Positions 1,084-4,803 of a DNA stretch of 10,180 nt are shown piece by piece. Position 1 is the stretch's first letter, and the number at the start of each line of letters is the position of its first letter. The notes beneath the pieces were generated by a model, which saw nothing but the letters and a program-made list of their open reading frames with translations, searched no databases and was not told where the DNA came from. The translations under genes and the position numbers were made by a program. This DNA comes from a virus, in the UHGV virus genome UHGV-1550197; one strand, 5' to 3'.

Positions 1084-1112
1084 ATACTATCACAAAGGAA
1101 CCGTACTGTAAA
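1084..1112 (-). promoter_or_regulatory. candidate T4-early-type sigma70 promoter for the 110-aa ORF
   Basis: Minus strand reads GTTTACA (-35 TTTACA at 1107-1112), 17-nt spacer ending TGA, then TAGTAT (-10 at 1084-1089). It sits immediately downstream of the intrinsic terminator. Confidence 0.4.
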
Positions 1113-1132: not shown

Positions 1133-1162
1133 AAAATAAAAAAGGACTCCCGAAGGAGTCCT
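1133..1162 (-). terminator. rho-independent terminator (minus strand)
   Basis: Minus-strand RNA: stem GGACUCC / GGAGUCC (1155-1161 / 1144-1150), UUCG tetraloop (1151-1154), then UUUUUUAUUUU (1133-1143). Starts 5 nt after the stop of the 58-aa ORF. Confidence 0.8.
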
Positions 1163-1166
1163 CAAC

Positions 1167-1343
1167 TTATGCTTTCTGCTTACCAAAACGAGAAGCATCA
1201 TCTCGAAGAACCGCACGTGCTCGGCGCATGATCTTCTCAACAGTTTGATTGATACGAGAGTTCGACCCACGCTTGTAGCCAGCGCGTTTAGAATCACCAA
1301 CTTTCTTTTCAACTGCTTTCTTTGCTTTAGCTTGTTTTGCCAT
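1167..1343 (-). CDS. small highly basic protein (58 aa, Lys/Arg/Ala-rich), possibly nucleic-acid binding; function unknown
   Basis: Track ORF is 72 aa from ATG 1383-1385, but that ATG has no usable RBS (AGG only 2 nt upstream). The internal ATG at 1341-1343 is preceded by AAAGAGAA. Product MAKQAKAKKAVEKKVGDSKRAGYKRGSNSRINQTVEKIMRRARAVLRDDASRFGKQKA; followed by a strong terminator. Confidence 0.55.
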   Translation of the reverse strand: MAKQAKAKKAVEKKVGDSKRAGYKRGSNSRINQTVEKIMRRARAVLRDDASRFGKQKA

Positions 1344-1385
1344 TATAAATTCTCTTTTAAATGAAAATGCAGGACTTATTGGCAT

Positions 1386-1739
1386 TGCCTGCGCAAGCCC
1401 TCAAGGGGAACATAGGTTTTTGGATATTTAACGACCAGGATAACCATAAACCCGTCATCATACATTATAGCTCTTATCTGTTGCACACCGTTAGCTTAAA
1501 GGTTCCGGGTCCGATTACTCGAGGATAAGATATATACTGATGGATATATAGGCCTTGAGGCGTACTCCCGATTGGCCATCACCTCGGGGTAGCATGCACT
1601 TGCCGCTATAAAATAACATTCAAGAGGTACACCGTAAAACTGCCGGGGTCTTAAAACTATAATGATTCGCAAATCATTAATCAGACAGTTCGACGGCTCC
1701 TCGATTTAGCTCACACTAAGGCAGTGAATCTCCAATAAA
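1386..1739. other. ORF-free, GC-enriched (~44% against ~33-35% in flanking genes) element; candidate structured ncRNA, long mRNA leader or foreign insert
   Basis: No ORF of 60 aa or more in any frame (longest minus-strand ORFs I found by hand are about 30 codons). GC content by hand count is 37-50% per 60-nt line. Holds multiple copies of a palindromic CCTYRRGG-type 8-mer able to pair alternatively, plus local hairpins. No promoter motif found inside. Confidence 0.35.
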
Positions 1740-1988
1740 TTACTTCAATGTTACCACAAAGTGGCGAACTGCTTTTCGTGCAGCAGAAGCCAAAGGCTTA
1801 GCATATTTAAGTTCATCTTTTTCCTGAAGCTCAGCAGCTAATGCAGTTTGAGCAGGATTCAGATGTTTGAAATAACGCAGGATTTCAAGAGCTTCGGCTT
1901 CAACATCAATAGATGCGCCATAGTTTTCGTGACCATTATTCCATGCGTTTCGTTGCAGTTCAAGAGCGTGTTGTAATTGTTTAATCAT
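1740..1988 (-). CDS. rIII: rIII lysis-inhibition accessory protein (82 aa)
   Basis: Translation MIKQLQHALELQRNAWNNGHENYG... matches T4 rIII as I remember it, in length (82 aa) and sequence; position downstream of gene 31 as in T4. Confidence 0.9.
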   Translation of the reverse strand: MIKQLQHALELQRNAWNNGHENYGASIDVEAEALEILRYFKHLNPAQTALAAELQEKDELKYAKPLASAARKAVRHFVVTLK

Positions 1989-4223: not shown

Positions 4224-4744
4224 GTTGATCCCAGCTCCTTACTTTCAACGTTTTTAACTAATTTGACAGAAACTAATTCAGCATCTTGAGTAATCATTAC
4301 CGGACCTTCTTCATACTCTTCAAGATATTCTAGAGCTTTCTTTTTAGCTTCTTCCTTCGTATCAGTTTGAGCATAGATATAAAACATACAACCAGTAATA
4401 CCTACTACTTTCCACTTAATTTCTTTATCAGTTTTAATTTCAAATTTACTGACGGAATCATCTTTTTGAACTTCTTCGAAAAAAGAATATTCTAACATAT
4501 AAGCAATTGAAAATAGCGGGCTAACTTTATAGGATTCACCCATTACATCAACAGCTTTATACCAACAATCATCAATTTCACGTTTAATGCTAATAACATT
4601 TTTCGCAGGATCTATTTTTACTTTAAATGAATTTTCCCCAATAAACTGGGCAATTCGTTTATTAGCCCCGCAAGTTTCATTAAAAATATCTTTATATCCA
4701 GCTTTAAAGCGATAAACCTTATCTTCTTCAAACCATTCGCTCAT
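4217..4744 (-). CDS. hypothetical protein (175 aa), acidic C-terminal half
   Basis: ATG 4742-4744 with GAGGA 7 nt upstream; it has its own candidate promoter in the 62-nt gap upstream. Product not recognised. Confidence 0.7.
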   Translation of the reverse strand: MSEWFEEDKVYRFKAGYKDIFNETCGANKRIAQFIGENSFKVKIDPAKNVISIKREIDDCWYKAVDVMGESYKVSPLFSIAYMLEYSFFEEVQKDDSVSKFEIKTDKEIKWKVVGITGCMFYIYAQTDTKEEAKKKALEYLEEYEEGPVMITQDAELVSVKLVKNVESKELGSTC

Positions 4745-4774
4745 TTCAATTTCCTCATTTGTTTTGGTAGAGCT

Positions 4775-4803
4775 ATAATATCACAACTCTACCGTAAAGT
4801 AAA
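4775..4803 (-). promoter_or_regulatory. candidate T4-early-type sigma70 promoter for the 175-aa ORF
   Basis: Minus strand GTTTACT (-35 TTTACT at 4798-4803), 17-nt spacer ending TGA, TATTAT (-10 at 4775-4780). Inverted repeat GGTAGAG / CTCTACC (4787-4793 / 4766-4772) brackets the -10. Confidence 0.4.

Follow-up and report, generated by a model that had tools for sequence, protein, structure and literature searches.

What does the 58-codon open reading frame (ORF) on the minus strand of UHGV virus genome UHGV-1550197 encode, lying as it does between a long structured noncoding sequence and a hairpin with a UUCG loop, and what might its product do? The window, by which we mean the whole stretch of DNA analysed here (10,180 nucleotides, nt), is that of a T4-like phage, with 99% identity to Escherichia phages U115 and MLP2 over 951 nt, and its minus-strand gene order (31.2, 31.1, 31, rIII, a long spacer, the 58-codon ORF, 30.8, 30.7) is the order of T4. 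An earlier note on this DNA had recognised no named T4 protein in the ORF. In fact, its product is identical to T4 gp30.9 (NP_049823; UniProt P17310) at 58 of 58 residues (E = 3e-40), and the T4 gene occupies the same place between rIII and 30.8. Based upon the complete protein identity, the T4 gene order and the 99% DNA identity to Tequatroviruses, the ORF is almost certainly a Tequatrovirus gene 30.9, which comes last among the cistrons of the rIII transcription unit. In T4 and its relatives 30.9 lies on the same strand as its neighbours within the block of genes from 31 to 30, an order kept in at least 10 genera. Both the gene and the terminator behind it are already known and annotated in T4, which has the same terminator and the same downstream promoter sequence as the window. 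The T4 record describes gp30.9 as a 'conserved hypothetical protein', and the 58-residue sequence matches PHROG 1427 ('unknown function') over residues 1-58 (E = 2.3e-31).

Is 30.9 a real coding gene, and where does it begin? The list of ORFs for the window has no separate entry for the 58-residue protein; it holds a 72-residue ORF at 1167..1385 (minus strand), the last 58 residues of which, from ATG 1343, are the protein in question. The Lys/Arg-rich ORF of the earlier note is thus exact from ATG 1343 to the TAA at 1169-1167. By tblastn, 30.9 is found in 1006 phage records, all of them T4-like, compared to 1117 for rIII, a gap largely accounted for by Acinetobacter phages, which supply 69 of the rIII records and are not among the listed hosts of 30.9. 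The 30.9 frame is open over at least 10 genera, and in the ungapped core of eight loci from seven genera the differences at codon positions 1, 2 and 3 number 186, 143 and 354. An overlapping frame (ORF 1058-1312, +1) had been proposed as the one that relatives might conserve instead, but it contains 1-7 stops in every other genus examined, and as a gene it would traverse both the terminator and the next promoter; we therefore rejected it. The closure of this alternative frame, together with the third-position bias in the 30.9 frame, supports the gene. Antisense frame 0 of 1167-1343 (plus strand) is stop-free in the window and in several relatives and interrupted in others, which probably follows from the many Lys and Ala codons and is not a sign of a gene.

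The start codon, for which ATG 1343 and ATG 1385 had both been considered, is settled on comparative evidence. A MAKQ or MSK start is conserved among relatives, the in-frame extensions upstream of it differ or are closed, and phage HX01 has an in-frame stop four codons upstream of its 30.9 start; ATG 1343 is therefore assigned as the start. The 72-residue form from ATG 1385 was rejected on the same grounds. We also rejected a legacy 97-residue UniRef form ('11.1 kDa'), with its likewise unconserved extension, and take it to be an older version of the sequence because the frame permits at most 72 residues in the window and T4 looks identical there by eye.

The opposite reading would be that the segment is not protein-coding at all, its conservation being due to RNA structure or the ORF being a product of chance. 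Consistent with this, gp30.9 is 'NA' (undetected) in the T4 proteome matched to the RNA-seq study in which its transcript is classed as 'early' (PMC9697503, Table S2), and its Shine-Dalgarno sequence is weak (AAGAGA). However, a tryptic digest of gp30.9 is predicted to yield only one peptide of at least 7 residues, so that absence from a proteome is to be expected and says little. The excess of substitutions at third codon positions, a 30.9 frame that stays open while other frames are closed in relatives, and a core motif kept in 166 protein clusters at overall identities down to ~35% all run counter to a non-coding segment, a reading that is effectively refuted and whose probability we regard as close to negligible. 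Gene 30.9 codes for protein, is conserved and transcribed early, and is the cistron that directly precedes a conserved intrinsic terminator. With 1006 records and an almost invariant core, its product is among the most widely and tightly conserved of T4 ORFans.

How does the transcription unit end? The hairpin GAGGACUCC-UUCG-GGAGUCCUU (1163-1142) starts 3 nt after the TAA of 30.9 and is followed by UUUUAUUUU (1141-1133). The terminator scan scores 9 pairs (5 of them G-C), a 4-nt loop and 8 U in the next 9 nt, and the tetraloop can be read directly from the sequence as ...CUCC-UUCG-GGAG..., with the UUCG closed by a C-G pair. The RNA folds at -15.9 kcal/mol, compared to -7.1 +/- 2.3 kcal/mol for dinucleotide shuffles (z = -3.8; 0 of 200 as stable). 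Two terminator-like sites were found in 2 kb where 1.3 are expected, and a single such site is not significant alone. What takes this one beyond chance is its position, since a hairpin and U-tract stand directly after 30.9 in 14 of the 14 phages compared, which represent at least 10 genera (Tequatro-, Mosig-, Jiaoda-, Kanagawa-, Dhaka-, Gelderland-, Moon-, Roskilde-, Karam- and Marfavirus, and an unclassified Erwinia phage). In HX01, PEi20 and IME281 the stem is rebuilt from different sequence, and most relatives have the UUCG loop. RNAalifold reports 3 pairs with compensatory changes in an alignment (MAFFT) that leaves some sequences out of register. The UUCG identity appears to be preferred and not required, since relatives have UACG or non-UNCG loops at the same site. 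Phage records annotate the site as a terminator by prediction only. The textbook UUCG terminator that had been proposed to close the unit is thus borne out as the predicted intrinsic terminator of the rIII-30.9 unit, and the C(UUCG)G hairpin probably also stabilises the 3' end of the RNA. UUCG hairpins were first noticed in T4 mRNAs, and it is textbook knowledge that the intercistronic regions of T4 contain C(UUCG)G hairpins, reportedly described by Tuerk and colleagues in PNAS in 1988. With its G+C-rich stem, C-G-closed UUCG loop and U-tract between two cistrons, the hairpin described here is an ordinary member of that class.

Shortly downstream of the terminator, the promoter scan predicts an early-type promoter for the 30.8 unit. 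The record of Yersinia phage fPS-65 annotates the corresponding site as a 'predicted early promoter', and most of the phages compared have GTTTAC, ~17 nt and TAnnAT within ~60 nt after the terminator (GTGTAC in Dhakavirus). A terminator followed by an early-type promoter thus forms the boundary between the rIII-30.9 unit and the 30.8 unit, for which transcription restarts at the predicted early promoter. On the upstream side, a promoter scan gave no promoter within the leader, and 30.9 is therefore probably co-transcribed with rIII, which is itself served by early, middle and late promoters (PMC9409239). Two promoter candidates in the leader were set aside: TTTACG-N17-TATTTT, noticed by eye, is not conserved in T4, and GTTAAATA in the tail of the hairpin module called D below does not fit the T4 late-promoter consensus and varies in relatives. 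The coordinates of these features are collected in the table.

Table. Features of the rIII-30.9-30.8 region (positions in the window unless given as residues of gp30.9)
Feature	Position	Strand	Description and basis
Gene rIII, upstream neighbour	1740-1988	-	100% identical to T4 RIII; synteny 31-rIII-30.9-30.8
Noncoding leader, rIII stop to 30.9 start	1344-1739	-	396 nt; mosaic of conserved RNA modules
Module B	1471-1605	-	135-nt structured RNA, CGGCAAG...GAUAAGAG, with GNRA-capped hairpin
Module D	1415-1456	-	Hairpin GAC-GGG..loop UUUAUGGUUAU..CCUG-GUC (1456-1433) and conserved tail GUUAAAUAUCCAAAAACC
Weak Shine-Dalgarno hairpin	1349-1368	-	AUUUUC/GAGAAU, pairs GAG 1354-1352; minimum-free-energy fold
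Gene 30.9, coding sequence	1167-1343	-	58 codons and TAA; ATG 1343-1341, stop 1169-1167; ORF list, T4 identity
gp30.9, N-terminal tail	residues 1-17		Lys/Ala-rich; length and sequence vary; nearly absent in Yersinia phage MHG19
gp30.9, core	residues 18-33		SKRAGYKRxSNxRINQ, almost invariant across relatives
gp30.9, helix	residues 29-53		One amphipathic Arg-rich helix; AlphaFold2 model
Predicted intrinsic terminator	1133-1163	-	9-bp stem, C(UUCG)G tetraloop, U-tract UUUUAUUUU; scan, fold, conservation
Terminator hairpin, window and T4			GAGGACUCC-UUCG-GGAGUCCUU
Terminator hairpin, Jiaoda-, Gelderland-, Moon- and Karamvirus			GGGACUCC-UUCG-GGAGUCCC
Terminator hairpin, HX01			GGGAGAC-UUCG-GUCUCCC
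Terminator hairpin, IME281			GGGACUC-UUCG-GAGUCCC
Terminator hairpin, F48			UACG loop
Terminator hairpins, PEi20 and FBB1			Other loops
Predicted early-type promoter of the 30.8 unit	1084-1112	-	TTTACA, 17 nt, TAGTAT; promoter scan

What kind of protein does 30.9 encode? gp30.9 has a mass of 6.5 kDa and an isoelectric point (pI) of 11.4, with Lys or Arg at 19 of its 58 residues and a net charge of +14. Its composition and the evidence for a real gene bear out the very basic small protein, unlike an enzyme, that the earlier note had described; the label 'very basic, low complexity' is accurate for residues 1-17. The sequence carries the full motif S-K-R-A-G-Y-K-R-x-S-N-x-R, followed by a helix containing R-A-R, and R20, Y23, K24 and R25 are invariant in 24 diverse members of the family, even in those only 32-46% identical overall. 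AlphaFold2 models residues 1-16 as disordered. When 1.84 billion representatives were searched with a profile, 17 proteins were retrieved, the hits being small basic phage proteins that share an R-x-G-Y-K-R core, and a wider profile search (5.8 billion clusters) returned 166 clusters. With the exception of a spurious 617-residue repeat protein (P0070), the matches of these deep searches are all small uncharacterised basic phage proteins, and they have no Pfam family in common, PF00122 being found only on one 92-residue metagenomic fragment (P0031). For gp30.9 itself, searches gave no Pfam or NCBIfam family at E <= 10, no PDB match by single sequence or by profile (and no ribosomal chain among the matches), and nothing by Foldseek of the model against PDB and BFVD, a fold search that is unlikely to be informative because the model is essentially one helix. 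Profile matches to the DNA-binding protein SlmA were discarded as non-significant (E = 0.16-5.6, single helix only), as were TetR_C_12 and others on distant homologues (E > 0.01). We found no functional study of gp30.9 in the literature; one article that, by its title, concerns rIII/30.9 expression in vivo (Driukas & Nivinskas 2003, Biologija) is cited in PMC9409239. In public records, gp30.9 homologues of phages PHB12, FJ1 and PMBT63 are mislabelled as '1,4-alpha-glucan branching enzyme'.

Distant homologues of 30.9 are also found in other contexts. In a 179-kb metagenome contig of the Joint Genome Institute (JGI; Ga0308167_1000126), the homologue forms a stand-alone cassette consisting of a sigma-70-like promoter (TTGACT-17-TATACT), a hairpin in the 5' untranslated region, the gene and a strong terminator (hairpin AAGCCCUC-GAU-UGAGGGCUU with a U-run), and this cassette adjoins genes for HMG-CoA reductase and UbiA. 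The homologue of Aeromonas phage avDM9-HANS sits between genes for proteins of 109 and 232 residues, with DNA ligase next, in the cd-to-ligase region, where there is no rIII and no long leader; it is followed by a hairpin (GGGGUAUC-UUUC-GAUACCCC) with a weak T-tract only. Both distant homologues checked in other contexts have a terminator-like hairpin 3' of the gene. In avDM9-HANS and in the Pseudomonas phage PspYZU05, only ~30 nt lie between the 30.9 homologue and the preceding promoter or gene, and the Pseudomonas-phage protein has an extra C-terminal Lys/Ala/Pro-rich tail of histone-H1 type.

What lies between rIII and 30.9? This leader RNA, and module B especially, is more unusual than the gene or its terminator. 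The spacer measures 108-396 nt in all Tevenvirinae genomes examined, which is unusually long given how tightly packed T4-like genomes are. The structured noncoding element that had been noted upstream of the gene is real, and includes two RNA modules supported by covariation, here called B and D. Rfam 15 gave no match at gathering score over the whole stretch, and none at E <= 10 on 1380-1745; Atu_C8 (E = 4e-4, 31 bits against a gathering score of 50) and Phe_leader were rejected, as they align only to the generic terminator hairpin. The leader contains no tRNA or tmRNA.

Module B occurs in 407 phage records from many Tevenvirinae genera, mostly at 91-98% identity, and a search of 185,579 bacterial genomes for one exact 20-mer of it gave no match. 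Module B evolves roughly ten times more slowly than synonymous sites; when the window is set against the four most distant genera in the comparison, 36-52% of the third codon positions of 30.9 are different. Across 19 distinct copies it forms a 40-pair structure in which 99.9% of cells are paired, 9 pairs show compensatory changes (a number reached by 0 of 500 shuffles, with slid controls at 0-1), and most unpaired nucleotides are invariant. Folding energy alone is uninformative (z = -0.75), and the case rests on covariation. A coding origin for this conservation was rejected: the ORFs annotated there differ between records, the variable positions are almost all compensated stem positions, and T4 lacks the segment. 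In 37 of 37 retrieved copies with enough downstream sequence, module B stands 130-225 nt upstream of the 30.9 core motif. It is optional, being absent from T4, HX01, IME281, STML-198, CC31 and FBB1. The leader of the window is 152 nt longer than that of T4, from which it differs by a 152-153-nt insertion at 1463-1616 that comprises module B and short flanks and has AATGT at both borders; in T4 the junction found in its place reads gaatgt/gaatgatg. The 5' flank of the insertion, UAUUUUAUA(A)G, is common to Citrobacter phage CF1, where it stands directly after the rIII stop. This shared flank, together with AATGT on both borders, suggests either recombinational movement of module B or its loss in a deletion at a microhomology. 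Based upon its covariation and conservation, we consider module B a candidate new RNA family, which could regulate in cis, be a ribozyme or persist as a stable RNA of the phage.

Module D is a smaller hairpin with a conserved loop (UUnnnGGUUAU) and a single-stranded tail (GUUAAAUAUCCAAAACC), present in 14 of 14 phages. Its outer stem is GAC/GTC in six of them, GTG/CAC in four, GTC/GAC in two and GTT/AAC in two, and is in the same register in 12 of the 14; this exchange of paired bases is genuine covariation. The distance from module D to the ATG of 30.9 ranges from 72 to 305 nt, and the hairpin lies on either side of module B depending on the phage. More generally, the order of leader modules varies, and they are shuffled independently of the protein subtype. 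Close to the start codon, a weak hairpin that includes the Shine-Dalgarno sequence is predicted in 9 of 14 phages, with a pairing probability of only ~0.5. Its arms differ by lineage (UUUUC/GAGAA, UCUCC/GGAAGA and, paired manually, CCUCA/UGAGG in FBB1). In the T4 leader (retrieved T4 locus 4542-4785, minus strand), a long-range pairing is predicted between a 5' part, CACUGCCUUAGUGUGAGCU..UCGAGG, and CCUUGAGGGCUUGCGCAGGCAAUG just upstream of 30.9; this pairing would enclose the whole leader (z = -2.6), which corresponds to blocks 1617-1739 and 1371-1411 of the window. By eye, two GGAG motifs can also be seen just after the rIII stop, at 1730-1733 and 1697-1700 (minus strand). The T4 endoribonuclease RegB recognises GGAG, and the motifs may be processing sites that separate rIII and 30.9 RNA.

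What, then, might gp30.9 do? We propose that it would be an early 6.5-kDa protein, largely disordered alone, whose variable Lys/Ala-rich N-terminal tail would supply non-specific electrostatic affinity for nucleic acid. Together with the core S-K-R-A-G-Y-K-R-x-S-N-x-R (R, Y, K and R invariant family-wide) and the amphipathic Arg-rich helix at residues 29-53, it would act stoichiometrically by folding onto nucleic acid, and not as an enzyme. The target would sooner be RNA (an mRNA leader, rRNA or the ribosome, or tRNA) than DNA, a preference drawn from the protein's composition, from the aromatic and basic residues fixed in its core, from a context rich in RNA and from the neighbouring product RIII, which binds ribosomal protein S1 (PMC9409239). 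Synthesis of gp30.9 would probably be set post-transcriptionally by the long structured leader, including the weak hairpin over the Shine-Dalgarno sequence; such post-transcriptional control of 30.9 is plausible. Indirect support for nucleic-acid binding comes from the high pI and charge, from the disordered residues 1-16 and the helix of the model, from a tail of changing length and sequence next to a constant core motif, from the extra histone-H1-type tail of the Pseudomonas-phage homologue, and from the position of 30.9 behind RNA structures with covariation. Several points weigh against this proposal. For a small basic protein, DNA or an acidic protein surface would be an equally possible target. 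The structure model is of moderate confidence only, with a mean pLDDT (predicted local distance difference test score) of 67, and the searches of Pfam, NCBIfam and PDB and with Foldseek linked gp30.9 to no domain that binds RNA or DNA, no ribosomal protein and no solved structure. The protein is undetected in the T4 proteome mentioned above, leader modules are shuffled independently of protein subtype, and the Pseudomonas and Aeromonas phage homologues do without a long leader. Taken as a whole, the explanation that joins the identity of the gene, the terminator and nucleic-acid binding is in our estimate close to an even call, leaning slightly to the negative side, and RNA binding in general is put forward as a tentative possibility.

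Within RNA binding, gp30.9 could be an autogenous regulator that recognises one of the structures of its own leader, such as hairpin D, module B or the Shine-Dalgarno hairpin, and represses or activates its own translation. All Tevenvirinae genomes examined have a long, conserved and structured leader ahead of 30.9, with a covarying hairpin D in 14 of 14 phages and module B upstream of 30.9 in every checkable retrieved copy; the weak hairpin at the ribosome-binding site reappears with arms of other sequence, and T4 provides precedents for autogenous translational repressors (see also PMC9409239). However, hairpin D varies in its distance to the ATG (72-305 nt) and in the side of module B on which it stands, a poor fit to an operator overlapping the ribosome-binding site. 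Module B is missing from T4 and the five other phages named above, the PspYZU05 and avDM9-HANS homologues have gaps of only ~30 nt, and protein subtype does not co-vary with leader type, so that autogenous regulation seems improbable. Shuffled modules, an optional module B and homologues lacking a long leader together indicate that there is no obligate partnership between protein and leader. It is rather unlikely that gp30.9 is the partner or the regulated output of the hairpin D and module B RNAs in a ribonucleoprotein or cis-regulatory circuit, which may, for example, take the form of N/nut-like read-through control at the terminator, or of autogenous or ligand-dependent control of translation. 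Alternatively, gp30.9 could be a host-takeover factor that binds rRNA or the 30S or 50S subunit and biases translation towards phage mRNAs, as its early transcription, its ribosomal-protein-like size, charge and disorder, and the binding of S1 by the adjacent RIII (PMC9409239) might suggest. The link to RIII is guilt by association only, though, and neither Pfam nor NCBIfam, even at E <= 10, nor PDB chains searched by sequence or profile, place gp30.9 with ribosomal proteins; we consider this role doubtful.

Outside RNA binding, gp30.9 could act on DNA, be it as a small transcription factor or like a histone or protamine, with either the host nucleoid or phage DNA containing glucosyl-hydroxymethylcytosine as its target. 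Its high pI would suit such a role, as would a Lys/Ala-rich tail resembling those of histone H1, to which the PspYZU05 homologue adds a second. Yet there is no helix-turn-helix, ribbon-helix-helix or HU-like signal, the only profile matches are the non-significant, single-helix ones to SlmA (E = 0.16-5.6), and the gene context gives no pointer to DNA transactions, which leaves DNA binding unlikely. Finally, the amphipathic helix and the basic core could dock on an acidic protein surface, making gp30.9 an inhibitor of a defence system or a modulator of a host enzyme. Many small early ORFan genes of T4 inhibit host proteins or defence systems, and the stand-alone cassette of promoter, gene and terminator in one metagenomic lineage would fit a portable accessory function. 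Typical anti-defence genes are patchy and fast-evolving, whereas almost all enterobacterial Tevenvirinae genomes carry 30.9 and its core hardly varies; a protein target, too, has little probability in our view. The preferred reading, binding of nucleic acid and of RNA in particular, is a defined hypothesis that, with the clean assignment of the start codon, makes gp30.9 testable. If the leader RNA and gp30.9 do work together, they would constitute an undescribed post-transcriptional control element in T-even phages, and an RNA-protein circuit would add a T-even post-transcriptional regulator so far unnoticed.

Known systems offer partial parallels. Lambda N acts on nut boxB, and T4 gp32, gp43 and RegA are translational repressors. 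The 30.9 locus resembles N/nut by analogy only, in that a small, basic, disordered early protein is encoded behind a conserved hairpin with a single-stranded tail; the Arg-rich segment of gp30.9 is internal and C-terminal, and not N-terminal as in the lambda N-type arginine-rich motif. The likeness to the T4 repressors is likewise an analogy of function only, and gp30.9 has no sequence similarity to either group. Unlike in these leader-hairpin systems, the distance and order of the hairpin relative to the gene vary here. Small basic ribosomal proteins, among them phage-encoded bS21, are similar to gp30.9 in size, charge and disorder, but it has no Pfam, NCBIfam or PDB match at E <= 10 and is not a member of families such as bS21, bL34 or bL36. 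Elsewhere in the same gene block, homologues of 31.1 and 31.2 are mislabelled in public records as 'Phage tail fibers'.

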